Below the pieces are notes generated by a model, which saw nothing but the letters and a program-made list of their open reading frames with translations, searched no databases and was not told where the DNA came from. Positions 4,537 through 64,000 of a stretch of DNA of 64,000 bases are shown piece by piece. The stretch comes from an uncultured Steroidobacteraceae bacterium (GTDB lineage: Bacteria; Pseudomonadota; Gammaproteobacteria; Steroidobacterales; Steroidobacteraceae), in assembly GCA_964468395.1 (NCBI GenBank), contig CAYXUJ010000003.1:18190-82189 (forward strand), given 5' to 3'. Position numbers and translations under genes: made by a program. How positions within the stretch are numbered: position 1 is the first letter of the stretch; each line of letters begins with the position of its first letter.

Positions 4537-4612
<76 letters not shown>

Positions 4613-8787: not shown

Positions 8788-9684
8788 TCAAGCGAAAAGC
8801 TTTCGTCTGGCCGCGTCGCAGATGGCGATTACCGCGGGATTCTTGATTCTGCGTTCCACGGATATCGCATAGAAATGGTTTCGGGCCTTGCCCGCGCGGC
8901 CGACGCGAACCACGCTGAATAGGCGACCGAACTGACTTTCAAGGACCATGGGTACAGGAAAGAGTCCCGCACCCTCCCGCCCGAACTCCCGCAACAGCGC
9001 ATAGTCCTCGAACTCGCCGACGACGGTGGGTCGTATCCCTATCTGTTCGAACCACTGATCCAGCGATCGCCTGATCGCCGTATCGTCGGTCGGCAGCAGG
9101 ACCGGCGCATGGTCCAGCGACTTGGGAAACGTCGCGCGGTGCGACTTTGCGAGGGCCGCTGTCGCCATCCAAACCAGGCCGCACTCTCCCAGGGAATGGT
9201 TGAAGGCGCGAACATTGAGGCTTGGCGCCGCCGGCGCATCGGACAGCACCACGTCGACGTCGTGCGAGGCGAGATCCGCGACCAGTCTGCTCAGGCCCGC
9301 CTCGCGACAGACGATTCGGACCGGCAGTTTCAACTGCAGCGCGGGCTCGATCAGGAGATGCGCTATTTCCTTCGGCAGGATGTCGTCGATTCCGATCACC
9401 AGCCGCAATGGCCGTCCGGTCGGTCGGCCCTGCAGCGTATCGAGCATCTCGCGACCGAGGCCGAAAATCTCGTCGGCGTACCTAAATACCATGCGTCCGG
9501 TATCGGTTGGAGTCAGCATGCGTCCCGATTTCATGAGCAGTTGTTCACCAAGACGCTGTTCGAGCAGTTTCAACTGCGTGCTGACTGTCGGCGCCGAGAG
9601 TTTCAGCTCTTCGCAGGCCCGAGTGAGGCTGCCCGCTCGAACCACCGTCCAGAAGTACAACAGGTGCTGGTAGTTGAGCCGCAT
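8788..9684 (-). CDS. LysR family transcriptional regulator (NhaR-like)
   Basis: 298 aa from the ATG at 9684. HTH region is MRLNYQHLLYFWTVVRAGSLTRACEELKLSAPTVSTQLKLLEQRLG, followed by a LysR substrate-binding domain. Confidence 0.85.
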   Translation of the reverse strand: MRLNYQHLLYFWTVVRAGSLTRACEELKLSAPTVSTQLKLLEQRLGEQLLMKSGRMLTPTDTGRMVFRYADEIFGLGREMLDTLQGRPTGRPLRLVIGIDDILPKEIAHLLIEPALQLKLPVRIVCREAGLSRLVADLASHDVDVVLSDAPAAPSLNVRAFNHSLGECGLVWMATAALAKSHRATFPKSLDHAPVLLPTDDTAIRRSLDQWFEQIGIRPTVVGEFEDYALLREFGREGAGLFPVPMVLESQFGRLFSVVRVGRAGKARNHFYAISVERRIKNPAVIAICDAARRKLFA

Positions 9685-9747
9685 GTACGTTCCGGCTGGA
9701 TCACGCCTCATCATCCCGAACGTCCGGCAACCTGCGCCACGCGCAGA

Positions 9748-41465: not shown

Positions 41466-42965
41466 TCAGACCGCCGGTTCGACGTTCGCGTTGAGGCGGA
41501 ACAGGTTGCCCGGGTCGTACTGCTTCTTGAGCGCCCGCAGCCGCGGCAGGGCGATGCCGTAGTTGTCGCTGACCGCCTGCTGCGGCTCGTCGCCGAGCGA
41601 GTTCGTGTAGCGGCCGAGGGTGAACGGCTCCAGCGTCTTCCAGTAGTCCTTGATGTAGCGCGTGTGCGGCGCCGCGTCGCCATCCAGCTTCCAGGCGACG
41701 ACCGAGTACATGCCATGCTGCGCGTGGCGATGCGCGAACGCAGTCGCCGCCGGGTCGACGCGGCCGAAAGCGCCGCCGGCGTGCTGGAAGAAGACCGTCG
41801 TGCTGCGGTCCGGGTGCGGCTCGAAGCCGTCCAGCAGGGTCGCGATCATGCTGGCCTGGAAGTCGCGAATGAAGCCCTCCTTCATGTACACGCCCTCGTT
41901 GCGCGGGTCGGTGCGGTCATGGCTGCGTTGCAGGGCGACGTAGTCCTTCGCGGCGATAGTGCTGGCGATCGGCGTGCCGAGGGCCTGCAGTCGCGCCAGC
42001 GCGCGCTCGGCATCCGCGGCGCTGCCGGAATGGCAGATCGACAGGACCACCACGCCCGGCTTGCCGCCCATCGGCGCCGACATCACGAAGTCGGCGTAGA
42101 GCTCGTCGGGGGCGTTGGAGCTGAAGTCCGCATAGAACTCCAGCAACTCCCGCGCGCGGGCGATCGGAAACACGATGTCCCCGCCGGTGACCTGGCGCTG
42201 CATCGGGTGCAGCTCGAACTCGAAGTTCGTGACCACGCCGAAGTTGCCGCCGCCGCCGCGCACGCCCCAGTGCAGCTCCGGGTTTTCCTGCGCATCGGCG
42301 TGGCGCAGTCGGCCGTCGGCGGTGACGATGTCCACCGCCCGCACGTTGTCGAGCGCGAGCCCGAAGCGGCGGCATAGCCGCCCGAAGCCGCCGCCCAGCG
42401 TCAACCCGCCGACGCCGGTGTGCGAGACGGTGCCGGCCGTGGTGACCAGGCCAAATGCCATCGCCTCGTGGTCCAGCTCGCCGAGCAGGCTGCCGCCGTC
42501 CGCCCAGGCGCGGCGCGCGGCAGGATCGACGCGCACGCCGCGGAAGCGGGACAGGTCGATCTGCATGCCGCCCTCGCAGGTGGACTTGCCGGAGGTGCTG
42601 TGGCCGCCGCACTTGACCGCCAGCAGCAGCTCATGCGTGCGGGCGAAATCCACCGCGCTGCGCACGTCGGCGACGCCGGTCGGCTGCACGATCAGCGCCG
42701 GGTGGCGGTTGATCGACTCGTTCAGCACGCGCCGCGCCTCGTCGTAGCCCGCATCGCCGGCCAGCAGCAGCGGCCCGCGCAGGCTCGCTTTCAGCTCGCG
42801 GATGGCCGCCTGCTCGAGGACGATCCCGGTCCCGCTGCCGGTGACGGCGGCAACGCCCCCCGCGGCCTGGGTGGCCGCCTGGTCCACGGCGAACACGCGG
42901 CCATAAGGCAGGGCGCAGGCGACGGCTGCCGCAAGCGAACCCTGGAAGAAATGACGTCTGTTCAT
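41466..42965 (-). CDS. Tat-exported FAD-linked oxidase (PCMH FAD-binding plus BBE domain)
   Basis: 499 aa from the ATG at 42965. Twin-arginine leader MNRRHFFQGSLAAAVA, FAD_binding_4 region (AVKCGGHSTSG), and the BBE C-terminus (LRALKKQYDPGNLFRLNANV). The 861-aa ORF in the track is an upstream read-through. Confidence 0.85.
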   Translation of the reverse strand: MNRRHFFQGSLAAAVACALPYGRVFAVDQAATQAAGGVAAVTGSGTGIVLEQAAIRELKASLRGPLLLAGDAGYDEARRVLNESINRHPALIVQPTGVADVRSAVDFARTHELLLAVKCGGHSTSGKSTCEGGMQIDLSRFRGVRVDPAARRAWADGGSLLGELDHEAMAFGLVTTAGTVSHTGVGGLTLGGGFGRLCRRFGLALDNVRAVDIVTADGRLRHADAQENPELHWGVRGGGGNFGVVTNFEFELHPMQRQVTGGDIVFPIARARELLEFYADFSSNAPDELYADFVMSAPMGGKPGVVVLSICHSGSAADAERALARLQALGTPIASTIAAKDYVALQRSHDRTDPRNEGVYMKEGFIRDFQASMIATLLDGFEPHPDRSTTVFFQHAGGAFGRVDPAATAFAHRHAQHGMYSVVAWKLDGDAAPHTRYIKDYWKTLEPFTLGRYTNSLGDEPQQAVSDNYGIALPRLRALKKQYDPGNLFRLNANVEPAV

Positions 42966-43855
42966 GGAACCTCCCCGACCGGAATTTTCTCGACCCTGAA
43001 TGCGGAGCGCAGCAGCAGCAGCGCCGCGTAGAGCACGACCACGACCACGCCCCAGCGCAGCGTCGTCAGCGGCAGCGACTTGACCAGGAACGCCGCGGCC
43101 AGCACGAAGGGCACGCCGCCGATCGCCAGCCCGATCGCGATGCGGCGATCGACGCGTTCGGCGTGCAGGAAGCGCATGCTGCAGGCCGGCATCAGGAACG
43201 CGCAGGCGCCCATCATGATCGGGAACGCCGCGATCGGGTTGAGCCCGAGCAGCGACAGCAGGATCAGCGACGGGGCATAGGCGCCGATGCCGAAGGTCAT
43301 CAGCGCGCCCAGCACGAAATGCGCTGCGACCGCGACTGCGAACGCGCCCGGCGGCAGGGCGAGGGCGTCGCCGCCGCCCGGCATCAGGCCGAGGTTGGTC
43401 AGGGCATAGAGCACGGCCGCCAGCAGCAGCGCCAGGCCGACGAATCCCTGCACCGCCCGCACCGGCAGCCGCAGGACGATCGGCGCCCCGACCAGCGAGC
43501 CGGCCACCGCCGAGGCAATGCAGGCGAGCAGAAGCGCCGGATCGACCTCGACCAGCTTGATGAAGATCAGCGCTTCCGCGATCGTCGGCAGCGTATGGCC
43601 GACGTTGAGCGTCGCCGGAATGTAGCTGTCCGGCAGCAGCCGGCGCAGCTTGAACCATGCGGTCGTCGGCGCGAAAGAGCCGATGCCCAGCGTGTCCAGG
43701 AAGTTGGTGACGGCGCCGAGGCCGACCGATTCGAGCGTCGGCCGCAGCTGCCCATGGCGGCGCGCGGTCGCGAACAGCACCGACGAATAGGCGGTGGCGA
43801 TCAGCGCAAGCGCGGCGAGCAGAAGGGTGACGATCATCCGGCCAGGCGCTTGCAC
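42962..43855 (-). CDS. TauE/SafE family sulfite/anion exporter-like membrane protein
   Basis: 297 aa, about 8 TM segments. TauE-like repeats are present (NFLDTLGIGSFAPT.....; GALMTFGIGAYAP). Its stop overlaps the FAD oxidase start by 4 nt. Confidence 0.7.
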   Translation of the reverse strand: MQAPGRMIVTLLLAALALIATAYSSVLFATARRHGQLRPTLESVGLGAVTNFLDTLGIGSFAPTTAWFKLRRLLPDSYIPATLNVGHTLPTIAEALIFIKLVEVDPALLLACIASAVAGSLVGAPIVLRLPVRAVQGFVGLALLLAAVLYALTNLGLMPGGGDALALPPGAFAVAVAAHFVLGALMTFGIGAYAPSLILLSLLGLNPIAAFPIMMGACAFLMPACSMRFLHAERVDRRIAIGLAIGGVPFVLAAAFLVKSLPLTTLRWGVVVVVLYAALLLLRSAFRVEKIPVGEVP

Positions 43856-43908
43856 ACCGTGAATCGGGACTGAGACAATGAAGCCACATCCGGCAGAGGA
43901 TTACCAGC

Positions 43909-45306
43909 ATGCACCCGACCTTCACGAGGCGCGGCCTGGCCGCGACGTTCCTGTGCCTGTGGTTCGCGCCCGCGCTCGCCGACAGTGCCGCCGTGCCGCC
44001 GGCCGTGTCGGCGCAGATGCTGGAGATCCTGCAACGCTCGATCGCCTTCAAGACCGTGCGCGGCGAGGGCCAGGTGCCGGCCTACGCGGAATACCTGGCC
44101 GGCGTGCTGCGTGCCGGCGGCTACGCCGCGGAGGACATCGTCATCACGCCGCACGGCGAAACCGCGACCCTGGTCGCGCGCTGGCGCGGCAGCGACCCGT
44201 CGGCGAAGCCGATCGTGATCGCTGCGCACATGGACGTCGTGTCGGCTTTCCGCGAGGACTGGGAACGCGACCCGTTCACGCCGGTGATCGAGGACGGCTT
44301 CATCTTCGGCCGCGGCTCGTCCGACAACAAGTTCGGCATCGCCAACATGGTGGCGACGCTGCTGTGGCTGCGCGAGGAGGGATTCCAGCCGCGCCGCGAA
44401 ATCATCCTGGCGCTGACCGGCGACGAGGAGACCACCCAGGACACGACGGCCGTGCTCGCGCAGCAGCTGAAGCATGCGGAGATGCTGCTGAACAGCGACG
44501 CCGGCGGCGCGCTGCTCGGCGACGACGGCAAGCCGGTGGTCTACGGCTTGCAGGCCGCCGAGAAGACCTACATGGACTTCCACGTCAGCTTCAGCAACCC
44601 GGGCGGGCACAGCAGCCGCCCGTCCGCCAGCAACGCGATCTACGACATGGCCCGCGCGATCTCGAAGATCGCGGCATTCCGGTTCCCGGCGCGTTCGAGC
44701 GAGCTGACGCAGGCGTATTTCCGCGCCGCCGGGCCCATGACACCGGGTGAGACCGGCGCGGCGATGCTGCGGTACGCGGACGATCCGGGCGACCGCGAGG
44801 CTTACGAATTGCTCGCGTCGCAGCCGGAGCACGTCGGCCAGCTTGGCACGACCTGCGTGGCGACGATGGCAAAGGCCGGCCACGCCGAGAATGCGCTGCC
44901 GCAGAGCGCGATGGTCAACGTCAATTGCCGCGTGTTTCCCGGCGAGTCCGTCGAGAGCGTGCGCTCGACCCTCGAGCGCGTCGTGGACGACCCGGGCGCG
45001 ACCGTGACCGTCGCCAACAAGCCGGTGCCGAGCGACGCCTCGCCGCTGCGCGAGGACGTCATGCGGGCGCTGCGCCGGGCGATCGACCTGCGCGCCCCGG
45101 GCCTGCCGATCGTGCCGTCGATGTCGGCCGGCGCGACCGACAGCCTGTACTTCCGCAATGTCGGCGTGCCGAGCTACGGCGTCAGCGGCATCTTCATGCA
45201 TCCGCGCGACAGCTTTGCACACGGCCTGAACGAGCGCGTGCCGCTCGCGACCTTCGATGGCGCGCTGCGGCAATGGCGGAGCCTGCTGATGGACCTCGCG
45301 CGCTAA
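43909..45306 (+). CDS. secreted M20/M25/M40 family metallopeptidase
   Basis: 465 aa. Signal peptide and M20 metal/catalytic motifs (IAAHMDVV; GRGSSDNKFG; LTGDEET). Confidence 0.85.
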   Translation: MHPTFTRRGLAATFLCLWFAPALADSAAVPPAVSAQMLEILQRSIAFKTVRGEGQVPAYAEYLAGVLRAGGYAAEDIVITPHGETATLVARWRGSDPSAKPIVIAAHMDVVSAFREDWERDPFTPVIEDGFIFGRGSSDNKFGIANMVATLLWLREEGFQPRREIILALTGDEETTQDTTAVLAQQLKHAEMLLNSDAGGALLGDDGKPVVYGLQAAEKTYMDFHVSFSNPGGHSSRPSASNAIYDMARAISKIAAFRFPARSSELTQAYFRAAGPMTPGETGAAMLRYADDPGDREAYELLASQPEHVGQLGTTCVATMAKAGHAENALPQSAMVNVNCRVFPGESVESVRSTLERVVDDPGATVTVANKPVPSDASPLREDVMRALRRAIDLRAPGLPIVPSMSAGATDSLYFRNVGVPSYGVSGIFMHPRDSFAHGLNERVPLATFDGALRQWRSLLMDLAR

Positions 45307-47174: not shown

Positions 47175-48554
47175 ATGAAGGTGTTCGGCAGCGTTCTCGA
47201 CATGGTCGGGCGCACGCCCATGCTGCGGGTGCGCAAGCTCGACACCGGGCCCTGCGAGCTGTACCTGAAACTCGAGCTCATGAACCCCGCCGGCTCGATC
47301 AAGGACCGGATCGGCCTGACCATGATCGAGGAGGCCGAGCGGCGCGGCGACCTGAAGCCCGGCGGTACGATCGTCGAGGCGACGGCCGGCAACACCGGCC
47401 TCGGCCTGGCGCTGGTGGCGGCCCAGAAGGGCTACCGCGTCGTGCTGGTGCTGCCCGACAAGATGAGCCAGGAGAAGATCTTCAACCTGCGGGCGATGGG
47501 CGCGGAGGTCGTGCTGACCCGCTCGGACGTCGAGAAGGGCCACCCCGAGTATTACCAGGACGTCGGCGCCAGGCTCGCGCGCGAGAACGGCTGGTACCAC
47601 ATCAACCAGTTCGGCAACCCGGACAACCCGAAGGCGCACGCGACGGCGACCGCGCCGGAGATCCTCGAGCAGATGCAGGGCAAGGTGGATGCCGTCGTCG
47701 TCGGCATCGGCTCGAGCGGCACGATCGCCGGGCTGACGGCCTGCTTCCGCGAGCGCGCGCCGGGCATCGAGATCATCCTGGCCGATCCGGAGGGCTCGGT
47801 GCTCGCCGACCAGGTCAACCGCGGCAGCTACGGCCGCGCCGGATCCTGGCTGGTCGAGGGCATCGGCGAGGACTTCATCCCGGAGATCTGCGATTTCTCG
47901 ATGTGCCGCAAGGCCTACAGCATCACGGACGCCGAGTCGTTCGCGACCGCGCGCGAGATCCTGCGCCAGGAGGGCCTGCTGGTCGGTTCGTCCACCGGGA
48001 CGCTGGTGGCGGCGGCGCTGCGCTGGTGCCGCGAGCAGAAGCAGGCGAAACGCGTCGTGACCTTCGCCTGCGACACCGGCAACAAATACCTGTCGAAGCT
48101 GTTCAACGACTTCTGGATGGAGGACCAGGGCTTCATCCGCCGCGAGCAGCACGGCGACCTGCGCGACCTCGTCGGCCGGCCGCACGGCGAGCGCGCGACC
48201 GTCACGGTCGGCCCGGACGACGTCCTGACCACGGCCCACAACCGGCTGCGCAACGCCGGCTTCAGCCAGCTGCCGGTCATGGAGGGCGAGCGCCTGGTCG
48301 GCTTCATCGACGAGGACGATATCCTGCGCCACGCCTTCGGCGACCCGGAGCGGTTCAACGACTCGGTGCGCGCGGCGATGCACACGAATTTCCTGGTCGT
48401 CGAGCCGGCGCTGGCGTTGCGCAACCTGGTCGCGATGCTCGACGTGCAGCCGTACGCCGCGGTGATGGACGACGGCCAGTTCCACGGGCTGATCACCCGC
48501 GCCGACGTGCTCAACTACCTGCGCCGCCAGATGGCCCCGTCGCCGGCGCACTGA
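47175..48554 (+). CDS. cystathionine beta-synthase (PLP domain plus CBS pair)
   Basis: 459 aa from the ATG at 47175. Trp-synthase-beta-like fold with the PLP Lys motif (NPAGSIKDR) and GSSGT loop. C-terminal tandem CBS (Bateman) domains are present. Confidence 0.85.
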   Translation: MKVFGSVLDMVGRTPMLRVRKLDTGPCELYLKLELMNPAGSIKDRIGLTMIEEAERRGDLKPGGTIVEATAGNTGLGLALVAAQKGYRVVLVLPDKMSQEKIFNLRAMGAEVVLTRSDVEKGHPEYYQDVGARLARENGWYHINQFGNPDNPKAHATATAPEILEQMQGKVDAVVVGIGSSGTIAGLTACFRERAPGIEIILADPEGSVLADQVNRGSYGRAGSWLVEGIGEDFIPEICDFSMCRKAYSITDAESFATAREILRQEGLLVGSSTGTLVAAALRWCREQKQAKRVVTFACDTGNKYLSKLFNDFWMEDQGFIRREQHGDLRDLVGRPHGERATVTVGPDDVLTTAHNRLRNAGFSQLPVMEGERLVGFIDEDDILRHAFGDPERFNDSVRAAMHTNFLVVEPALALRNLVAMLDVQPYAAVMDDGQFHGLITRADVLNYLRRQMAPSPAH

Positions 48555-48556
48555 GG

Positions 48557-49726
48557 ATGACCATGAAGAAAACCGGCAAGCCGCGCGGGTTCGCCACGCG
48601 CGCCATCCACGGCGGGCAGTCGCCGGATCCCACGACCGGCGCAGTGATGCCGCCGATCTACGCCGTGTCCACGTACGCGCAGCAGAGCCCCGGCGTGCAC
48701 CAGGGTTACGAGTACTCGCGCACGCAGAATCCCACGCGCATGGCCTGGGAGCGCGGCATCGCCGACCTCGAGGGCGGCACGCAGGGCTTCGCCTTCGCCT
48801 CCGGCATGGCCGCGACCGCGACGCTGCTCGAGCTGCTGGACAGCGGCGACCACGTGCTGGCGATGGACGACCTGTACGGCGGCACGTTCCGCCTTTTCGA
48901 GCGCGTGCGCCGGCGCAGCGCCGGCCTGGATTTCACCTTCGCCGACCTGTCGGATCCGGCGGCCGCAGCCGCGGCCATCCGGCCGCGCACGCGCCTGATC
49001 TGGGTCGAGACGCCGACCAACCCGCTGCTCAAGCTGGCCGACCTCGCGGCGCTGGCGGAGATCGCGCGCGGCCGCGGGATCCTGCTGGCGGTGGACAACA
49101 CCTTCGCCACGCCGTGGATCCAGCGGCCGCTCGAGCTCGGCGCCGACATCGTCATGCACTCGGCCACCAAGTTTCTCAACGGCCACTCGGACATGGTCGG
49201 CGGCGTCGCGGTGGTGCGCGACCCGGCGCTGGCTGAGCGCATCGCTTTCCTGCAGAACGCGATCGGGGCGGTCGCCGGGCCGTTCGACAGCTTCCTGGCG
49301 CTGCGCGGGCTGAAGACGCTGCCGCTCAGGATGCGCCAGTCGAGCGAGAGCGCGCTGGCGATCGCGACGCACCTGGAACGGCATCCGCGCGTCGAGCGCG
49401 TGCTGTATCCGCACCTGCCGTCGCACCCGCAGCAGGCGCTGGCGCGGCGCCAGATGGCCGCGGGCGGCAGCGGCATCGTCACGTTCTTCCTGAAGGGCGG
49501 CCTGGCGGAGGCGCGCGGCTTCCTCGAGCGCCTGGAGGTGTTCACGCTGGCGGAGAGCCTGGGCGGCGTCGAGAGCCTGGTGGACCACCCGGCGATCATG
49601 ACGCACGCGTCGGTGCCGCCGGAGGCGCGGGCGAAGCTCGGCATCAGCGATTCGCTGGTGCGGCTGTCGGTCGGCATCGAGGACCTCGCCGACCTGGTGT
49701 CGGACCTCGACGCGGCGCTCGGCTGA
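48557..49726 (+). CDS. cystathionine gamma-lyase (Cys/Met metabolism PLP family)
   Basis: 389 aa. The start is 2 nt after the CBS stop. Motifs are FATRAIHGG, the PLP Lys motif HSATKFLNGHSD, and SLGGVESL. Confidence 0.85.
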   Translation: MTMKKTGKPRGFATRAIHGGQSPDPTTGAVMPPIYAVSTYAQQSPGVHQGYEYSRTQNPTRMAWERGIADLEGGTQGFAFASGMAATATLLELLDSGDHVLAMDDLYGGTFRLFERVRRRSAGLDFTFADLSDPAAAAAAIRPRTRLIWVETPTNPLLKLADLAALAEIARGRGILLAVDNTFATPWIQRPLELGADIVMHSATKFLNGHSDMVGGVAVVRDPALAERIAFLQNAIGAVAGPFDSFLALRGLKTLPLRMRQSSESALAIATHLERHPRVERVLYPHLPSHPQQALARRQMAAGGSGIVTFFLKGGLAEARGFLERLEVFTLAESLGGVESLVDHPAIMTHASVPPEARAKLGISDSLVRLSVGIEDLADLVSDLDAALG

Positions 49727-56966: not shown

Positions 56967-57284
56967 TCACTTTTTTGGAGCGAAAAGCGCCTCGAGAGCC
57001 TCTTTGGCGGACCGGGGATCCGGGGCGCCCGCGGCGCCGGCCGCCGGCGCACGGCCCGCGGCGGGCTCGAAATACCCGCAGAAATTGGCGCGCTCCTTGT
57101 CCTGCACCTCGTCCGCCACCGGTTCGGCGCAGCTTTTCGCCTTGCGGGTGTCGAAGAAGCGGCACATGCGGCACACGTGCAGCTCGGCGCGGCAGGCGCG
57201 GCATTCGTCCCGGCGCGCCAGCGGCAGCGTCAGCTCAGCGAGTGCTGCCCCGCACCTCCAGCAGGCCAGCGGCGGGGCGCCCAT
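56967..57284 (-). CDS. small double zinc-ribbon protein (unknown function)
   Basis: 105 aa. CWRC(x17)CRAC and CRMC(x13)C..(x16)C arrangement, with an Ala/Pro-rich tail. The start codon directly abuts the stop of the upstream gene. Confidence 0.55.
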   Translation of the reverse strand: MGAPPLACWRCGAALAELTLPLARRDECRACRAELHVCRMCRFFDTRKAKSCAEPVADEVQDKERANFCGYFEPAAGRAPAAGAAGAPDPRSAKEALEALFAPKK

Positions 57285-57797
57285 TCACTTGATCCGCGTG
57301 ACCCGGGTCGAGCGATTGGACGGCCCCGACAGCAGGAACGAGCTGAGGGCCGCCGGCTGGATCTTGATCTGCTCGCCGGTCTTGAGCCGGAACAGCGAGT
57401 CCGGCCGGTTCTGCTTCCAGATCTGGCCGTTGTCGAGCGTGATCACCATGAGCCCGTCGGCCCGCTTCCAGATTTCCGTGACGGTTGCATTCAGCTCGGT
57501 CAGGTCGCGCGCGGCCTGGCTGCGCTGATCGTGCCCCTCCCGGTCCATGGCGCCGGTGCGCCCGAAGCGTTCCTCTGGCGTCAGGGCCGGTGCGGCGGCG
57601 GCAGCCGGCGCCGCGGCGGCCGCCGCCGGATTGGCTGCGATGCGGTCGATCTCGCGGTCGTAACAGGCCAGCCGGCGCGCGTCGTCCTGCTCGGCGCGGC
57701 AGTCCAGCAGGGCGCTGTCCTGTGCCGCGGCGGCAGCGGGCAGGGCCAGCGCCATCGCGGCGGCCAGCCAGGCTGCGGGCATCGTCACTCGTTTCAT
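57285..57797 (-). CDS. secreted protein of unknown function (Cys pair, Ala-rich linker, C-terminal beta domain)
   Basis: 170 aa. Signal peptide (AAWLAAAMALALPAAAAAQ), the motif LLDCRAEQDDARRLACYD, a poly-Ala/Pro linker, then the domain VTEIWKRADGLMVITLDNGQIWKQ. Starts 2 nt after the upstream hydroxylase stop. Confidence 0.6.
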   Translation of the reverse strand: MKRVTMPAAWLAAAMALALPAAAAAQDSALLDCRAEQDDARRLACYDREIDRIAANPAAAAAAPAAAAAPALTPEERFGRTGAMDREGHDQRSQAARDLTELNATVTEIWKRADGLMVITLDNGQIWKQNRPDSLFRLKTGEQIKIQPAALSSFLLSGPSNRSTRVTRIK

Positions 57798-57799
57798 CG

Positions 57800-58900
57800 T
57801 CAGATCTCCCAGTCCGGTTTCCTGCCACTGTGCGCGTCGATCGCCTCGAACAGGGCGATCACCAATGCCCGCTCATCCTCGGTCAGCTCGGGGCGCCAGA
57901 CGTCGAACAGCAGTATGACCCGCGTCTGGTCGCTGTCGTTCCAGGCCTCGTGCTCGATGGTGTCGTCGAAGGCCCAGGCCTTGCCTTCGACCCATTCCCG
58001 AACGTCGTTGCCGACCCGGAAGCGGCAGCGGCCCGGCACGATCAGCGGCAGGTGGCAGACCAGGCGTGTGTTGATCAGCCCGTTGTGCGGCGGGATGTGG
58101 GCGCCGGGGCGCAGCAGCGAGAACAGGATCGACGGCGAGCGATAACGCACCTGGGCGAGCGGCGCATTGCGCAACGCCTGCATCGTCTTCGGGCAGCGCG
58201 CGGCGTTCTCCGGCACGGCCTCGCCGTTCTTCCACAGGTAGAACGCGCTCCAGGCCGGGTTGTTCAGCATCCCCATCTGGTCCTTGTAGGGGCGGTTGGC
58301 GTGGCCCTGGACGTAGGGTGCGAAGGCGTCCGGCTCGCGCATCACCTCCAGCAATTCGGCACGGATGTCGCCGGTCGCTGCCTCGACGTCGTCGAGCCAG
58401 GGGAACTGGCTGCGCTCGTAGAACTGGATCTGGGGCAGGCCGGGGAAGTAGTAGTACTTCGGCTCCTGCAGGTAGATGCGCTTGCTGCCGAGCACGATGT
58501 CGACCGATTGCGCGAAGCGCGGACTGGAGCGCTTCTCGTCGAAACCCTTCGCGGCCAGGCTCCGGCGCAGGTAGTCGCGGTACTCGGCCGCGTAGCGTTC
58601 GTAGATGCGCCGCGCCCGGGTCAGTTCCTCCGCCGTCGCGCGCGGTACGCCCGACGCCGGCGCCAGGCGCAGCGCCATCTGGTAGAAGGCGGTCGCGGAG
58701 CGCGCGTCGCCGGCGGCGGCGAAGCAGTCGGCGCGCTGGATCAGCGCCAGCAGGTTGCGCGGCTCGGCGGCCAGCAGGCGATCGAGTGCGCCCGCCACGT
58801 CGCCCGCGGCGGCCTGGGCGAACAGCTCGCGCGCTTTCTGGCCGTCGCCGCGCTGCAGGGCGACTGCGCCTGCGCTCGCAAATTCCGCTGAACCTTGCAT
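57800..58900 (-). CDS. TPR-repeat / aspartyl-asparaginyl beta-hydroxylase family protein (paralog 1)
   Basis: 366 aa. N-terminal TPR-like helices, then an AspH-type cupin domain (FPGLPQIQFYERSQFPWL...WSAFYLW...LRPGAHIPPHNG...DDTIEHEAWN). Confidence 0.82.
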   Translation of the reverse strand: MQGSAEFASAGAVALQRGDGQKARELFAQAAAGDVAGALDRLLAAEPRNLLALIQRADCFAAAGDARSATAFYQMALRLAPASGVPRATAEELTRARRIYERYAAEYRDYLRRSLAAKGFDEKRSSPRFAQSVDIVLGSKRIYLQEPKYYYFPGLPQIQFYERSQFPWLDDVEAATGDIRAELLEVMREPDAFAPYVQGHANRPYKDQMGMLNNPAWSAFYLWKNGEAVPENAARCPKTMQALRNAPLAQVRYRSPSILFSLLRPGAHIPPHNGLINTRLVCHLPLIVPGRCRFRVGNDVREWVEGKAWAFDDTIEHEAWNDSDQTRVILLFDVWRPELTEDERALVIALFEAIDAHSGRKPDWEI

Positions 58901-58984
58901 TGCCGGGCGGCATTATGCGGGCAGGCCGACGGAGCGGCAAAATCCTTGCGGCGCGCGGCGGCAGGGCCTTAGGCTAGCCGCCGC

Positions 58985-60163
58985 ATGAGTGAAGACGTCG
59001 CGCGGATGAACAAGGCCGCCGTCCAGGCGATGGCGGCGGGCGACATGCAGGGCGCCCAGTCGGTGTTGCTGGAGGCGCTCGGCCGCGACCGCGGCGACAT
59101 CCGCCTGTGGCTCAACCTTGCCGTCGTGCGGCGCCAGCTCAACGACCCGGACGGCGCTATTGCGGCGCTGCACGAAGTCCTGAAGCTGGACAACCGGAAT
59201 TTTCCGGCGCTGCTGATGGAGGCGGCGCTGCTCGACCGGCTCGGCAAGAGCGTCGCCGCTGCGCGGGCCTACGGGATCGCCCTGGTGCAGGCGCCGCCGG
59301 ATGCCGAGCTCGATGCGGCGACGCGCAAAGCGGTCGAACGCGCGCGCGCCGTGCATGAACAGCACGTCGGCGCGCTCGGCCGCTTCATCCGCGACCGCGC
59401 GGCCGGGGCGCGCGATCATTGCACGGCGGCGGAGCGCCGGCGCATCGAGGCCTTCATCGACACGACCCTGCGCACGCGCAAGCGCTACCAGCAGGAGCCG
59501 ATGGAGTACTACTACCCGGGCCTGCCGCCGATCGAGTTCTACGAGCGCGGGGAATTCCCGTGGCTGCCGGAGTTCGAGGCCGCGACCGACGCCATCCGCC
59601 AGGAGCTCGGGCGCATCCTGGTCGAGGACGAGAAGGGGTTCGCGCCCTACATCCAGTACGAGGACCACCTGCCGCTGGACCAGTGGCGCGAGCTCAACAA
59701 GTCGCCGCGCTGGAGCGCCTTCCATTTCTACCACCAGGGCCGGCCGGTTGCCGAGCGCTGCGCGCGGGCGCCGGAGACGATGCGGGCGATCGGCCTGCTG
59801 CCGCAGGCCGAGGTGGACCTGCGTTCGCCGACCGCGATGTTCTCGGTGCTGCAGCCGAAGACCCGCATTCCGCCGCACACCGGCGTCGCCAACTTCCGCC
59901 TGGTCGTGCACCTGCCGCTGGTGCTGCCGCCGCACTGCGGCTTCCGCGTCGGCGGTGAAACGCGGCAATGGCGCATGGGGGAGGCCTGGGTGTTCGACGA
60001 CACGATCGAGCACGAGGCCTGGAACGAGAGCGACGAGGTCCGCATCATCCTGATCTGCGACATCTGGAGCCCGCGGCTGTCGCCCGAGGAGCGCGCGGCG
60101 ATCCGCGCCGTGATTGCCGCGGCGGATGCCCACAGCGGCACGGTGCCGGCCGCTCATATATAG
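58985..60163 (+). CDS. TPR-repeat / aspartyl-asparaginyl beta-hydroxylase family protein (paralog 2)
   Basis: 392 aa with the same architecture. The C-terminal domain aligns by eye to paralog 1 (YPGLPPIEFYERGEFPWL...WSAFHFY...LQPKTRIPPHTG...DDTIEHEAWN). Confidence 0.82.
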   Translation: MSEDVARMNKAAVQAMAAGDMQGAQSVLLEALGRDRGDIRLWLNLAVVRRQLNDPDGAIAALHEVLKLDNRNFPALLMEAALLDRLGKSVAAARAYGIALVQAPPDAELDAATRKAVERARAVHEQHVGALGRFIRDRAAGARDHCTAAERRRIEAFIDTTLRTRKRYQQEPMEYYYPGLPPIEFYERGEFPWLPEFEAATDAIRQELGRILVEDEKGFAPYIQYEDHLPLDQWRELNKSPRWSAFHFYHQGRPVAERCARAPETMRAIGLLPQAEVDLRSPTAMFSVLQPKTRIPPHTGVANFRLVVHLPLVLPPHCGFRVGGETRQWRMGEAWVFDDTIEHEAWNESDEVRIILICDIWSPRLSPEERAAIRAVIAAADAHSGTVPAAHI

Positions 60164-60175
60164 TGCGCGACTGAA

Positions 60176-60841
60176 ATGTTCCTCAAGATCAAGAACCTGC
60201 TGAACAGCGAGGAGTGCGAGCGCCTCGTGGCGCTGGCCGGCGAGCTGAAGTTCGTCGACGGACGGGTTTCGAATCCCGCCAACACCGCCAAGCAGAACCT
60301 GCAGGCGGATGCCAGCGACCCGAAGTACGCGGAATCGGTGAAGATCGTCACCGCGGCGCTGGCGCGGTCGCGCGAATTCGGCAGCTTCGCGCTGCCGAAG
60401 AGAGTGGCGCCGCCGCTCTTGTGCCGCTACGAGCCCGGCATGAAATACGGCGCCCACGCCGACGCCGCGATCATCCAGCTGACCAACACCAAGCTGCGCT
60501 CGGACCTGTCCTGCACGGTGTTCATCGCCGAGCCGACCAGCTACGAAGGCGGCGAGCTGGCGATGATCATCGGCAACCAGACGCTGGCCTTCAAGGGCAC
60601 GCCGGGCGAGGCGATCATCTACCCGTCCACGCTGTGGCACGAGGTGGTGCCGGTGCGCACCGGGCAGCGGCTGGTGTCCATCACCTTCATCGAGAGCCAC
60701 GTCGCCGACCAGCACCAGCGCATGCAGGTCTACGAGCTCAACGAAATCGCCGCCCTCGAGGGCGCGCAGATGAACCCCGAGAGCCGGATACGGCTCGACG
60801 TGGTGCGCCAGAACCTGCTGCGGATGTGGTCCTCGTCCTGA
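60176..60841 (+). CDS. piuC: Fe(II)/2-oxoglutarate-dependent PKHD-type hydroxylase (PiuC/YbiX family)
   Basis: 221 aa, alignable along its full length to E. coli YbiX. HxD motif (YGAHADAA), SYEGGEL, and the distal His motif (YPSTLWHEV). Confidence 0.82.
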   Translation: MFLKIKNLLNSEECERLVALAGELKFVDGRVSNPANTAKQNLQADASDPKYAESVKIVTAALARSREFGSFALPKRVAPPLLCRYEPGMKYGAHADAAIIQLTNTKLRSDLSCTVFIAEPTSYEGGELAMIIGNQTLAFKGTPGEAIIYPSTLWHEVVPVRTGQRLVSITFIESHVADQHQRMQVYELNEIAALEGAQMNPESRIRLDVVRQNLLRMWSSS

Positions 60842-60846
60842 GCCGC

Positions 60847-62328
60847 CTATAGCAGGCGTTCGAGCCCCGCGAGCTGCCCGGCATAGTTGCGCCAGCGCCC
60901 GGACGAGCGGCGGTACAGCGGCTCGCGCACCTGGCCGACGCTCGCGGTCCGCACCCGGTTCGCCGTGCGCTCGGGCGCGAGGCAGGCGTCGTGCCAGGGC
61001 AGCCCGAGGAACTCCAGCAGCCGTTCGGCGACCGGCCGCGGCTCGGCCACGAATGCGTCGTAGTCCGCGTCGTGGATCCGTCCGCCGAACAGCCGGCGCC
61101 AGTGCGCCATCAGGCGCCGGTACTGCCGGTGATGATGGGCGATGGCCGCGAGGTCGTTGGCGTAGGCCAGCCGGTTGTCGAACTGCTGGAACCAGATGGA
61201 CAGGCAGGTGTCGCGCGCGTCGCGCACCGTGTGGACGAACTGCGCATTCGGGTACATCGCCGCCAGCAGCCCGAGGAGCGGCGACATGTCCGGGCGCTTG
61301 TTGGTGACCAGGCCGCCGCCCGGGAAGGTCCGGTCGAGCCAGGCGAGGTAGCCCTGGCCGATCCGCTGCCATTCCTCCGGGGCGAGCGATTCCAGCGATT
61401 CCGGGAACCGCGCCCCCGGCGGCAGCAGCTCGCGCACGAACCAGTCGATCTCGCCGCCGGCCGTGACCTGCGGATGCGCGGCCAGCACCTGCTCGAACAG
61501 CGTCGAGCCGGAGCGGAACATGCCGGTGATGAACACCAGCGGCCGCTCCGAGACCGGCGCCGCCGCGGCGAGCCACTCCGGCGTGAACGCGCGCAGGATG
61601 CGCTCGACGCGATCCTCCTCGGCCCGCTTGTCGTAGGGCAGCAGCCGGCCGGCGCTCAGCCGGTTGCCATGCCCGTACTGGGCGAAAGCATCGGCGTACC
61701 GGCCACAGTCGTCCAGCGCCTTGCCGAGCGCGAAGTGCAGGCTTTCGCGCGCCAGCGGCTCGATGTTCGAGCGCCGCAGGGCGCGCTGCAGGCGGCGGAT
61801 CACCGGGTCGCCGGGCGATTCGGCGCGGCGCGCGTGGGCGATCTGGATCAGCGCGTCGGTCCAGGCCGGATTCTGCTCGAGGATGGCCTCGTACAGCTCG
61901 AGTGCCCGCGGCACGTCGCCCCGTTCCTGGTGGAGCTGGGCGAGGTTGTAGCGCGCCGGGATGAAGGTCGGATTGGCCTCGAGCGCGCGCTCGAGGTGGG
62001 CCTGCGCGTCGTCGTCGCGGCGCAGCTCGGTGTGGATCACGCCCATGTTGGAGAGGACTTCCTCGGGCTGCTCGATGCCGAGGTCGAGCGCCTTCTGGTG
62101 CGCCGCGAGCGCTTCCTCGAGCCGCCCCTGGCGCCGCAGGAAGCAGGCGAAATTGAAGCGCGCGACCGGCAGCTCCGGCTGCCGTTCGATCAGCTGGCCG
62201 TAAAACTCCTCTGCCTCCGCAGTCTTGCCGAGGCGCTCGAGCAAGGCCGTCAGCTGCAGCCAATGGCCGGCCCGGTCGGGTTCCTTCGCGACCAGGTCGC
62301 GCAGGGCCTGCTCGGCGCTGGCGCTCAC
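60847..62328 (-). CDS. TPR-repeat sulfotransferase
   Basis: 493 aa. About 6 N-terminal TPR motifs, then a sulfotransferase domain with the PAPS 5'-PSB loop (VFITGMFRSGSTLFEQVLAAHP) and a 3'-PB-like region (HTVRDARDTCLS). Confidence 0.8.
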   Translation of the reverse strand: MSASAEQALRDLVAKEPDRAGHWLQLTALLERLGKTAEAEEFYGQLIERQPELPVARFNFACFLRRQGRLEEALAAHQKALDLGIEQPEEVLSNMGVIHTELRRDDDAQAHLERALEANPTFIPARYNLAQLHQERGDVPRALELYEAILEQNPAWTDALIQIAHARRAESPGDPVIRRLQRALRRSNIEPLARESLHFALGKALDDCGRYADAFAQYGHGNRLSAGRLLPYDKRAEEDRVERILRAFTPEWLAAAAPVSERPLVFITGMFRSGSTLFEQVLAAHPQVTAGGEIDWFVRELLPPGARFPESLESLAPEEWQRIGQGYLAWLDRTFPGGGLVTNKRPDMSPLLGLLAAMYPNAQFVHTVRDARDTCLSIWFQQFDNRLAYANDLAAIAHHHRQYRRLMAHWRRLFGGRIHDADYDAFVAEPRPVAERLLEFLGLPWHDACLAPERTANRVRTASVGQVREPLYRRSSGRWRNYAGQLAGLERLL

Positions 62329-63404
62329 GGCAGGCCCGCCGTGCCGAGCGCAGCCGCCACCGCATCGTCGGCCCGCGCCAGCCGCTCCAGCCAGGCCAGG
62401 CCGCGGCGGATCTCGTCGCCGTGCTCGCGCCGCGCATCCGCCAGGCGCGCCGCACGCTCGCCCTGGGGGAATGGCAGCTCCGGGGCCTTCGAATAGCGCT
62501 GCAGCACGGGACTGCGGCCGATGCCCGCCAGGTAGCGGGCGTCCTCGGGCAGGCCGATATGCCCGGCGACCCGGGCCATGGCACCCGCGACATCGGCGAG
62601 CACGGCATCGAAATCGAGCGCCAGGATCCGCCCGGGGAAGCCGCGCACCGTGTCCTGCAGCGTCAGCGTCTCGACCAGCCAGCCGAGCGCGGCCAGCTCG
62701 CCGCCCGAGAGCGCGTGCAGGGGCTCGGCGGGGCGCAGGCCGCGGGCCAGGAGGCGGCGCATGCGGCCCGGCCCGTGGCCGCGCAGGTCGATGGCGGAAT
62801 TGGCCCCGCCCAGCAGCGTCGCGAGATACGGTTCCGCCTGCACGTTCAGGTAGATCGCCCGCGCCTGCGGCCGCGCCGTCAGCAGCGGGGCGGCGGCCCG
62901 GCCTGCACTGCTGGTCGCCTTGACGACGACTGCGCGCGTCCAGTCGTAGCCGCGGGACCAGAGACCGAGGGTCATGTCGAGCATCGCCTCGAATTGCGGG
63001 ACGCTCAGCAGGGACTCGGGCTGGCCGAGCGTGTCATGCGCATCGGCCAGGGTCCGAAGCGGCAGCGGCTCGCGCAGCGACAGGACCATGCCGGTCTCGT
63101 CGAGCAGCCGGCTGACCAGGGTCGAGCCGACGTGGCCGGTATGGAAGATGAAATGGACGGGCCGCGGGCCGGCAACCTGCCGCGCCGCCTCGCTGACGGC
63201 CGGGCCCGGCAGCCAGGCGCCGCGCGTCGCCGGGCCGAGGATCCGGTCGTCGAGGAAGCTCGCGCCGCGGTAACCCTGGGCATCCATGCGCAGGACCAGC
63301 ACGCGGCCGCGCACCAGGTCGATCGCCTGCGGATAGGCGTCCGGCGACGCCGGCAGCAGGGCCAGCAATTCATTGCCGATCGTGTTCAAGGATTCCTGCG
63401 CCAT
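62325..63404 (-). CDS. sulfotransferase-like P-loop protein (divergent, function unknown)
   Basis: 359 aa. PSB-like loop (HFIFHTGHVGSTLVSRLLDE). Its stop overlaps the downstream TPR-sulfotransferase start by 4 nt. The family call is tentative. Confidence 0.5.
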   Translation of the reverse strand: MAQESLNTIGNELLALLPASPDAYPQAIDLVRGRVLVLRMDAQGYRGASFLDDRILGPATRGAWLPGPAVSEAARQVAGPRPVHFIFHTGHVGSTLVSRLLDETGMVLSLREPLPLRTLADAHDTLGQPESLLSVPQFEAMLDMTLGLWSRGYDWTRAVVVKATSSAGRAAAPLLTARPQARAIYLNVQAEPYLATLLGGANSAIDLRGHGPGRMRRLLARGLRPAEPLHALSGGELAALGWLVETLTLQDTVRGFPGRILALDFDAVLADVAGAMARVAGHIGLPEDARYLAGIGRSPVLQRYSKAPELPFPQGERAARLADARREHGDEIRRGLAWLERLARADDAVAAALGTAGLP

Positions 63405-63414
63405 GCGTCATTGT

Positions 63415-63446
63415 AAAAAAAAGCGGCGGTCCCGAGGGACCGCCGC
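63415..63446 (-). terminator. rho-independent terminator of the upstream TonB-dependent receptor gene
   Basis: Read on the minus strand: GCGGCGGTCC, loop CTCG, GGACCGCCGC, followed by TTTTTTTT (A-run 63415-63422 on the plus strand). It lies 33 nt downstream of the receptor stop. Confidence 0.75.
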
Positions 63447-63478
63447 CAGAGTTTCGATCGTTGTCGATCGATTCAGTC

Positions 63479-64000
63479 TTAGAAGGACACCCGTGCCCGC
63501 ACGAAGACATAGCGACCGAGGGCGTCGTAGGTCTGCGGGAACGTGTTGCCGTTGCCGGTCGTGCCGACGCTGGCGCTGATGGCCGGGTTGTCATCCAGGA
63601 TGTTGTTGATACCCAGGGTGACAGACGCCTTCTCCGTGACTGCCCAGTTGGCCGAGAGGTCGTAATAGTTCTCGGAGTTCAACTCGCGGTCAATGCGGTT
63701 GGACGGCATCGGCGTGTTCGGCGCCGTCAGGCCGATCGTGCCGTCGTAGTAACGCCACGTCAGGGAGACGTCGACGTCCCACGGCGTGATCCAGCTCGTC
63801 CGGAACCGGTGACGCCACTCGGGGTTCGGAGTGCCGCAGACGTTGGAGTAGTACCCCACGCAGTCATACTCCGGGATGCCCGGACCCGGCACGGTGATCA
63901 GCTCGTCCAGATACGTGCCGATCAGGTTGAAGTTCAGGCTGCCGAAGCGGCCGATCTCCAGCCCGGTGTAGTTCACGTTCAGGTCGTAGCCTTTCGTCGA
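63479..64000 (-). CDS. TonB-dependent receptor, C-terminal part (5' end outside window)
   Basis: The frame is open to the window edge. Beta-barrel C-terminal strands with alternating aromatics end in ..YVFVRARVSF (terminal Phe). Confidence 0.85.
   Translation of the reverse strand, partial: STKGYDLNVNYTGLEIGRFGSLNFNLIGTYLDELITVPGPGIPEYDCVGYYSNVCGTPNPEWRHRFRTSWITPWDVDVSLTWRYYDGTIGLTAPNTPMPSNRIDRELNSENYYDLSANWAVTEKASVTLGINNILDDNPAISASVGTTGNGNTFPQTYDALGRYVFVRARVSF

Follow-up and report, generated by a model that had tools for sequence, protein, structure and literature searches.

A TonB-dependent receptor subfamily clustered with AspH-type oxygenases and TPST-like sulfotransferases in proteobacteria

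Genes and features of the module

The stretch of DNA analysed here comprises 64,000 nt of contig CAYXUJ010000003.1 from an uncultured Steroidobacteraceae bacterium and is referred to, at its full length, as the window (G+C ~70%). The module under study occupies its far end (57285-64000) and consists of two genes for AspH-type oxygenases, a gene for a PiuC-like dioxygenase, a gene for a sulfotransferase with tetratricopeptide repeats (TPR), a gene for a divergent 359-aa protein (P5), a gene for a small secreted protein (sec170) and the 3' end of a gene for a TonB-dependent receptor. Across three proteobacterial classes, this receptor subfamily and sec170 are genetically coupled to the five enzymes, none of which has a signal peptide or a transmembrane segment and all of which are predicted to be soluble and cytoplasmic. 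Signal peptides are found in sec170 and in the receptor, the latter read in L002, a syntenic, 84%-identical relative from which the full-length receptor was taken. The module genes of the window are separated by gaps of 84, 12, 5 and 74 nt, and no second copy of any of them was found elsewhere in the window. A check of the open reading frames (ORFs) showed that all ORFs, coordinates and motifs listed in a preliminary description of this DNA are real. Its list of elements was correct in every gene that it named, but it had overlooked sec170 and an intrinsic terminator; the profile searches that it had proposed as a check gave matches to Asp_Arg_Hydrox, PF13640, PF13469, TPR and TonB_dep_Rec models.

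AspH-1 (57800-58900, minus strand, 366 aa) and its paralog AspH-2 (58985-60163, plus strand, 392 aa) diverge from an 84-bp control region (58901-58984), at coordinates that agree with the preliminary description, and share 43% identity over 329 residues, a stretch that takes in the helical N-terminal region. Both match PF05118 (Asp_Arg_Hydrox), with E-values of 5e-49 and 2e-44 (166.7 and 151.8 bits, respectively, against a cut-off of 22.6), and both contain the Fe-ligand contexts IPPHNG/IPPHTG and DDTIEHEAWN to which attention had been drawn earlier. Among solved structures, human ASPH is closest to AspH-2 (E 4e-29). In the alignment, IPPH(N/T)G, EHEAW and a further R downstream are matched by WPHTG, EHEVW and R of the human protein, which represent the HxG...H two-His iron site and the arginine that binds 2-oxoglutarate (2OG). 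Residues H298, G300, H343 and R353 are the same in all 48 sequences of an AspH family alignment. N-terminal TPR helices had been claimed for both paralogs; for AspH-2 these are borne out by Pfam (TPR_19, 28.4 bits, passing the cut-off of 25; TPR_2, 26.0 bits, just below 27), but AspH-1 has no Pfam TPR match and shows only a homologous helical region that aligns with the TPR region of AspH-2. In the six longer homologs that were read (~420-440 aa), the N-terminal extension is made up of more TPR-like helix and contains no signal peptide. The maximum 19-residue Kyte-Doolittle hydropathy of AspH-1 and AspH-2 is 1.00-1.07, and neither has a segment resembling a transmembrane helix.

PF05118 also includes the lipid hydroxylases LpxO and OlsC, and the preliminary description had named LpxO-like hydroxylation as a characterised pathway to which such enzymes might belong. 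The two paralogs score 64.9 and 52.5 bits with the LpxO equivalog model (cut-off 500) and 108.1 and 94.5 bits with that of OlsC (cut-off 450). With equivalog scores of 52-108 bits against cut-offs of 450-500, AspH-1 and AspH-2 are therefore not LpxO or OlsC, with which they share the Pfam family and partial NCBIfam matches; the window proteins differ further in having a TPR domain and no membrane segments. We assign AspH-1 and AspH-2 as new members of the AspH type of PF05118, for which beta-hydroxylation of protein Asp/Asn is predicted.

In Burkholderiales loci, the orthologs of AspH-1 and AspH-2 are adjacent to each other and beside the receptor, so that the paralog pair is old, and the two proteins probably work as a pair. 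Within the spacer from which they diverge in the window, a sigma-70-like promoter (TTGCCG-17-CATAAT) is found at 58940-58912 on the minus strand, and the blocks GGCATTATG, GGCAAAA(T)CCTTGCGGCGC and CCTTAGGCTAGCC are common to close relatives. No Fur-box-like sequence was seen in the 84-bp spacer or 5' of the receptor in relatives, as judged by eye only.

The gene for the PiuC-like Fe(II)/2OG dioxygenase (60176-60841, plus strand, 221 aa) starts 12 nt past AspH-2, where a PKHD-type hydroxylase had been described. Its product reaches 192.2 bits with NF003974 (PRK05467 Fe2+-dependent dioxygenase; cut-off 143), also matches PF13640, and has legible H-A-D ... H ... R-x-S motifs (HAD, WHEV, RLVS). 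With the YbiX equivalog NF003972 it scores 118, below the cut-off of 399. The profile scores place this protein in the PRK05467 PiuC family and not in YbiX proper.

The TPR-sulfotransferase (60847-62328, minus strand, 493 aa) matches PF13469 (1e-37; 130.9 bits against 27) and many TPR models besides, as expected from the earlier assignment. Its GTG start overlaps the stop of the P5 gene by 4 nt (GTGA). The 5'-phosphosulfate-binding (5'-PSB) loop GMFRSGST and the 3'-phosphate-binding (3'-PB) motif VRDARD are both present, and R26, E47, K98 and R123 are invariant across 25 sulfotransferase sequences. When a family profile of the sulfotransferase domain was compared with solved structures, tick and human tyrosylprotein sulfotransferases (TPSTs) ranked first (1e-33 to 3e-28), followed by the CurM/OLS sulfotransferases associated with polyketide synthases (1e-18), with carbohydrate and cytosolic enzymes at 1e-6 or worse. 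The alignments to TPSTs keep PRSGTT, RDxxxVxxS and TaSxxQV. The TPRs of the protein resemble those of OGT. It is assigned as a new, TPST-like member of PF13469, for which O-sulfation of peptide Tyr is predicted.

P5 (62325-63404, minus strand, 359 aa) had been described as a divergent sulfotransferase-like protein. It has no match among Pfam or NCBIfam models, although a few of its homologs carry PF13469, and the assignment is backed by hhalign and by AlphaFold/Foldseek. Against the sulfotransferase-domain profile, hhalign gave a colinear alignment with the PSB loop in register (probability 68%, E 4.7e-5). The AlphaFold (AF2) model has a mean predicted local distance difference test score (pLDDT) of 88.7, and the top 50 Foldseek matches in the PDB are all sulfotransferases, TPSTs first (best E 6e-6; TM-scores of 0.41-0.55 to TPSTs). 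The model thus assigns P5 a sulfotransferase fold. In its invariant PSB loop, HTGHVGST, the usual Arg is replaced, and the RDxxD motif of the 3'-PB site is not conserved; P5 may be a pseudoenzyme, or an atypical enzyme that uses other residues.

Only the 3' end of the receptor gene lies in the window (63479-64000, minus strand), comprising the last 173 codons and the stop of a gene of ~990 codons that leaves the window. Its presence upstream of the sulfotransferase genes had been reported, and the fragment indeed matches the Pfam TonB_dep_Rec beta-barrel model. The translation ends in GRYVFVRARVSF followed by the stop (...VRARVSF), with a terminal Phe, and shares 67% identity with the C-terminus of the full-length receptor of L002 (987 aa), which has a plug, a barrel and a signal peptide. 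No NCBIfam equivalog was matched, and likeness to characterised receptors is confined to the plug. Between the receptor stop and the P5 gene, an intrinsic terminator (63412-63447, minus strand) has an 11-bp stem, nine pairs of which are G-C, closed by a 4-nt loop and followed by a T7 tail, ~10 nt before the ATG of P5. The hairpin is kept in L002, with its loop changed from CTCG to TTTG, but no counterpart was found in L011 (Povalibacter uvarum DSM 26723).

Upstream of the receptor in four relatives (L001 17474-17733, L002 17513-17772, L004 17439-17698 and L010 18121-18380), conserved GTTGC-N6-GC(A/C)AC palindromes and repeated TTGTTGC are followed by a TATGAT-like -10 element, with a hairpin just 5' of the receptor ribosome-binding site. 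The palindromes may be an operator for some regulator; GTTGC-N6-GCAAC is absent from the spacer between AspH-1 and AspH-2. Rfam scans at the gathering threshold, covering the window and four loci with receptor leaders, revealed no riboswitch and returned only one distant tRNA.

The gene for sec170 (57285-57797, minus strand, 170 aa) has its ATG 2 nt past the AspH-1 stop. The protein begins with a signal peptide and a helical hairpin that contains an invariant Cys pair (C-x11-C[YF]D), and continues with a disordered Ala/Pro linker, an FG motif and a well-predicted C-terminal small beta-barrel of six strands with LDNGQxW. No Pfam family was matched, all 457 detected homologs are annotated as hypothetical, and Foldseek returned only weak OB/IF1-like matches for the barrel (every E >0.01). 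From its signal peptide and its recurrence in the loci described below, sec170 is predicted to be a periplasmic member of the module. Directly after its stop, without a gap, a 105-aa ORF (56967-57284, minus strand) has no Pfam or NCBIfam match, and its conservation is limited to six close relatives within Steroidobacteraceae, in which gene callers place a gene of 62-101 aa.

Recurrence of the module across proteobacteria

The TPR-AspH family is large, with more than 6,900 clusters at 90% identity (E <1e-10) and 535 clusters at 50% (E <1e-30). Neighbourhoods were sampled around AspH at the best 80 of at least 597 sites in a one-genome-per-species collection, and partner genes were sought with profile hidden Markov models (HMMs) built from alignments made in this analysis. 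The 80 loci come from Steroidobacteraceae, Nevskia, Solimonas, Caulobacteraceae, Sphingomonadales, Hyphomonadaceae, Rhizomicrobium, Burkholderiales and Usitatibacteraceae, and thus from alpha-, beta- and gammaproteobacteria; xanthomonads are not among them. Partners within 10 kb of AspH were counted in the 43 loci that extend 5 kb or more to each side (the full-flank set).

The receptor was matched by its HMM in 37 of the 43 full-flank loci, and sec170 in 29, all of them among the 37 with a receptor. The sulfotransferase was found in 27, a second AspH in 15, PiuC in 14 and P5 in 12. In 11 of 22 cases, the genes for PiuC and P5 are direct neighbours, no more than 300 bp apart. When a stricter definition was applied to the 33 loci with at least 9 kb on each side (HMM score of at least 900 bits), a complete receptor of the same subfamily was present in 25, and in 24 of these it lies no more than 3.3 kb away. 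In most of the 80 loci, a dedicated subfamily of receptors accompanies AspH, in many cases along with TPST-like sulfotransferases and the periplasmic protein. The order and orientation of the genes vary by lineage and class, yet their content recurs, which argues for selection for clustering. The module is also present in cultured hosts, among them Povalibacter uvarum DSM 26723 (L011) and Roseateles toxinivorans DSM 16998 (L038). The preliminary description had mentioned similar gene sets beside TonB receptors in xanthomonads, sphingomonads and Caulobacter; the recurrence is confirmed for Caulobacteraceae and sphingomonads and extends to Burkholderiales, Nevskiales and Hyphomonadaceae. The two findings that it had named as counting against its reading were not obtained: the neighbourhood is conserved in three proteobacterial classes, and the enzymes, by their LpxO and OlsC scores, do not fall into characterised pathways.

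The association of sec170 was also assessed from its own side, in an independent sec170-anchored scan of metagenome contigs (31 loci with at least 1.2 kb on each side). A module gene lies within 500 bp in 22 of the 31 loci (AspH in 12, the receptor in 10). On whether sec170 is an obligate partner of AspH, the scan speaks neither for nor against: besides the 12 loci with AspH, it gave sec170-PiuC-P5 trios, pairings with the receptor only, and isolated copies.

Several lineages add further components. Some encode TonB-ExbB-ExbD-ExbD, and a complete Opp/Dpp-type ABC importer (SBP_bac_5, permeases and an oligo_HPY ATPase) is found in one operon with the receptor and AspH, for example in L016 (Nevskia), in L015, and in L026 and L038 (Burkholderiales). 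In Nevskia, Solimonas and Burkholderiales loci, the operons that contain AspH encode both TonB-ExbB-ExbD and such an importer. Alphaproteobacterial loci add oxygenases that combine TPRs with 2OG-FeII_Oxy_5 (PF13759), which suggests that the module recruits different TPR-bearing tailoring enzymes by lineage; such genes lie at 11176-12552 in L012 and at 11142-12626 in L034, where an extra 2OG-FeII_Oxy_3 protein is encoded at 8978-9931. Gene fusions were seen as well. Five representative clusters are putative tandem TPR-AspH-TPR-AspH fusions of 538-907 aa, called on metagenome contigs (P0244, P0258, P0262, P0281 and P0312), and one putative 910-aa protein, likewise a gene call on a metagenome contig (P0308), joins TPR-AspH to a TPR-sulfotransferase.

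Other genes near the module in the window were considered as possible parts of it. A fatty-acid desaturase, an S41 peptidase, a bactofilin, a cyclase and the 105-aa ORF, all downstream of sec170, were rejected, being syntenic only in the six close relatives. A PLP enzyme of Cys/Met metabolism is encoded ~8 kb from the cluster (47903-49726, plus strand); in L001 (1-1206) the same enzyme is preceded by a PALP/CBS protein, and the pair resembles transsulfuration genes. This synteny is limited to close relatives, and a tie to the supply of sulfur or of 3'-phosphoadenosine-5'-phosphosulfate (PAPS) is speculative. Elsewhere in the window, G+C falls to 0.59-0.66 between 4001 and 26000, against ~0.70 in the remainder. 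This segment begins beside a tRNA (4537-4609, plus strand), shows no mobile-element signature, and carries, among the genes sampled, a FolE2 GTP cyclohydrolase, an aconitase, a glutamate dehydrogenase, LysR regulators, a PAS-GGDEF-EAL protein and an ABC-F ATPase. Between 42001 and 46000 the AT skew is high (0.16-0.18), with long minus-strand ORFs at 41466-44051 and 43834-45273.

Candidate substrates and direction of the pathway

The enzymes of the module may act one after another on the peptide-like cargo of the receptor once it has been imported. We hold this reading tentatively, at somewhat less than an even chance, and infer the sequential action, the peptide nature of the substrate and the direction of the pathway from gene context. 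The Fe(II)/2OG oxygenases would act first and install hydroxyl groups on the peptide-like substrate; the PAPS-dependent sulfotransferases would follow, transferring sulfate onto the new hydroxyls or onto tyrosines, and the TPR domains would grip the polypeptide, as those of human AspH do. The alteration of the cargo after import would parallel the genetically proven need of the receptors CciT and PiuA for the dioxygenases CciO and PiuC. A common substrate is suggested by the AspH-sulfotransferase and AspH-AspH fusions and by the pairing of oxygenases with sulfotransferases, and a peptide-like one by the TPR domains and by the nearest characterised relatives, which are human AspH and TPSTs. Import is suggested because several lineages encode the receptor together with a TonB complex and an Opp-type importer, and never an export route. 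The same relatives, fusions and gene pairing lend support, short of proof, to the hydroxylation and sulfation pathway on a protein or peptide that the preliminary description had put forward.

Several observations weigh against sequential action on an imported cargo. The window cluster encodes no inner-membrane importer, so that an imported cargo would have no encoded path to the enzymes. Sulfation serves biosynthesis or tailoring and is not known as part of nutrient catabolism. The strong terminator after the receptor gene makes its co-transcription with the enzyme genes uncertain, and P5 may lack catalytic activity. A receptor can be accompanied by as many as four sulfotransferases and four oxygenases, which is a lot for one cargo. 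Finally, ~14% of the full-flank AspH homologs stand alone among housekeeping genes.

Alternatively, the co-located genes may have no common substrate and act apart, for example in lipid hydroxylation of the LpxO/OlsC kind, or as hydroxylases that sense Fe(II), 2OG or O2 and regulate TonB-dependent uptake through an unlinked target. The terminator sets the receptor apart, some AspH homologs are alone, and one lies beside a TonB_C protein: in Sphingomonas oleivorans (L035), a 180-aa protein with a TonB_C domain (9234-9776, plus strand) is encoded directly upstream of a TPR-AspH that has no receptor nearby. This arrangement hints at a link of the family to the TonB machinery rather than to a given cargo. 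LpxO and OlsC belong to the same Pfam family, and the OlsC model gives partial matches (94-108 bits). However, the scores with both lipid hydroxylase models are far below the cut-offs, and the proteins are predicted to be soluble. The AspH-sulfotransferase fusions, and the clustering that is kept despite shuffled gene order in three classes, also argue for a joint function. We therefore regard independent action of the genes as improbable.

The substrate could instead be a protein of the module itself. The AspH- and TPST-like enzymes would then act in the cytoplasm, ahead of Sec export, on sec170, on the receptor pre-protein or on both, with hydroxylation at Asp/Asn and sulfation at Tyr or at the newly made hydroxyls, which would yield an altered uptake apparatus, perhaps one that binds a metal or a ligand. 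Characterised relatives of both enzyme types modify proteins, and TPRs are carried here too. The sole conserved protein of the module that is neither an enzyme nor a transporter is sec170, whose gene starts 2 nt past AspH-1 in the window and has an AspH gene no more than 300 bp away in 26 of the 80 loci, and no other candidate substrate gene was found in the loci. Its invariant Cys pair, followed by [YF]D, and its conserved [DN]-G-x-x-W also count in favour. Such a modification would further explain why a receptor needs a cytoplasmic oxygenase (PMC12004947). Several details fit less well. Copies of sec170 occur with a receptor in the absence of AspH, or wholly alone, and the Tyr after its second Cys is Phe in several loci that bear sulfotransferases. 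In the receptor, a Cys-bounded loop with Tyr and Asn was considered as the modified site and rejected, since the Cys residues are conserved but Tyr and Asn are not. We also know of no bacterial precedent for cytoplasmic hydroxylation or sulfation of Sec substrates. Overall, we consider it unlikely that the enzymes modify exported proteins of their own module.

A third kind of substrate would be an endogenous peptide. Tailoring by the enzymes would turn it into a secreted or cell-associated compound, hydroxylated or sulfated, such as an Fe(III) chelator with beta-hydroxy-Asp, which the receptor would then recapture. In siderophores, beta-hydroxy-aspartate is well known as a ligand of Fe(III), and hydroxylation and sulfation are usual tailoring steps. 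A self-made ligand has been proposed as model 1 for CciO in the work on CciT-CciO (PMC12004947). For Pontixanthobacter, a table of gene families gives two sulfotransferases and an Asp beta-hydroxylase, listed between them, cluster numbers that lie between those of lasso-peptide B2, PqqD and asparagine-synthase-like proteins (PMC10040529), and these numbers suggest that the genes belong to one cluster. In the gene cluster of a ribosomally synthesised and post-translationally modified peptide (RiPP), a precursor gene would lie beside those for the tailoring enzymes. When ORFs of 18-90 aa were taken from the unassigned DNA of 83 loci and grouped with blastp-short, no conserved family was detected: the recurring small ORFs were only Arg-rich high-GC noise and shadow ORFs. 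The short gaps between the window genes likewise argue against a precursor. No exporter, nonribosomal peptide synthetase, cyclase, protease or scaffold-synthesis gene recurs among the neighbours of the loci, and neither a Fur box (by eye) nor a riboswitch (Rfam) was seen. These results make biosynthesis of a recaptured ligand a doubtful explanation, and import of a peptide-like cargo that is then modified is the one that we retain provisionally.

Relation to known systems and significance

No relevant paper on this combination of enzymes and receptor was found in the literature searched. The preliminary description knew of no established function for the combination, but for one part of it, the pair of a TonB-dependent receptor and a PiuC-type enzyme, a genetic partnership has been demonstrated. 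In Caulobacter, the function of the receptor CciT strictly requires the cytoplasmic dioxygenase CciO by a mechanism that is unexplained, and the question why some TonB-dependent receptors depend on a cytoplasmic 2OG dioxygenase was raised in 2025 for CciT-CciO (PMC12004947). As in CciT-CciO, PiuA-PiuC and Fiu-YbiX, a TonB-dependent receptor is here genetically tied to a soluble cytoplasmic 2OG oxygenase, and the 221-aa protein of the window is assigned to their PRK05467 family. Unlike in those systems, the receptor belongs to another subfamily of ~990 aa, whose likeness to catecholate receptors ends at the plug, and PiuC is placed away from it, with two genes of the other strand between, and tracks AspH and P5. 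The module further adds AspH oxygenases, TPST-like sulfotransferases and a periplasmic protein, and shows no Fur box by eye. We rate the module as one that would work like, and extend, the partnership of a TonB-dependent receptor with a cytoplasmic dioxygenase, with a new receptor subfamily, a new enzyme set and a periplasmic component.

The enzymes can also be compared with their eukaryotic relatives. Like human ASPH (PDB 5apa, 5jqy), the bacterial proteins have TPRs followed by a PF05118 oxygenase, with the HxG...H site and the 2OG-binding Arg aligned. In contrast to it, they are predicted to be cytoplasmic, without a membrane anchor or an endoplasmic reticulum lumen to work in, and form a paralog pair; no EGF-domain substrate is encoded nearby, and the TPR regions cannot be aligned by sequence. 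The sulfotransferase shares PF13469 with TPST1/2, with tick TPST and, by family, with bacterial RaxST, and its 5'-PSB, 3'-PB and C-terminal ST(D)QV motifs align with those of the TPSTs. It differs in being predicted cytoplasmic and fused to an N-terminal TPR array, with no RaxX-like peptide or RaxA/B-type exporter near. In the isopeptidase clusters of alphaproteobacterial lasso peptides, a TonB receptor is likewise found beside enzymes for a peptide that presumably re-enters the cell, but no lasso cyclase, B protein, isopeptidase or precursor was found here.

As judged from the sequences collected, the module is widespread among proteobacteria, and its individual enzymes are assigned to known families. 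New are the specific likeness to TPSTs, the predicted fold of P5 with its replaced Arg in the PAPS loop, the membership of sec170 and the terminator. TonB-dependent receptors are the main route by which Gram-negative bacteria take up scarce nutrients and siderophore-antibiotic conjugates, and the module shows that the partnership between such receptors and dioxygenases reaches further than was first reported. In the one-genome-per-species collection, a TPR-AspH relative is encoded at no fewer than 597 candidate sites. Its enzymes are defined, soluble by prediction and assayable, their nearest relatives modify proteins, and cultured hosts are available, which makes the system experimentally tractable. 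It is of interest, too, for the question of how animal AspH and TPST evolved. A bolder possibility, which we think is quite unlikely, is that cytoplasmic AspH and TPST homologs beta-hydroxylate and sulfate a component of TonB-dependent uptake, sec170 or the receptor pre-protein, before its export. If true, this would constitute a new class of envelope-protein modification, and would provide a general answer to why many TonB-dependent receptors, as in CciT-CciO and PiuA-PiuC, need a cytoplasmic 2OG oxygenase.

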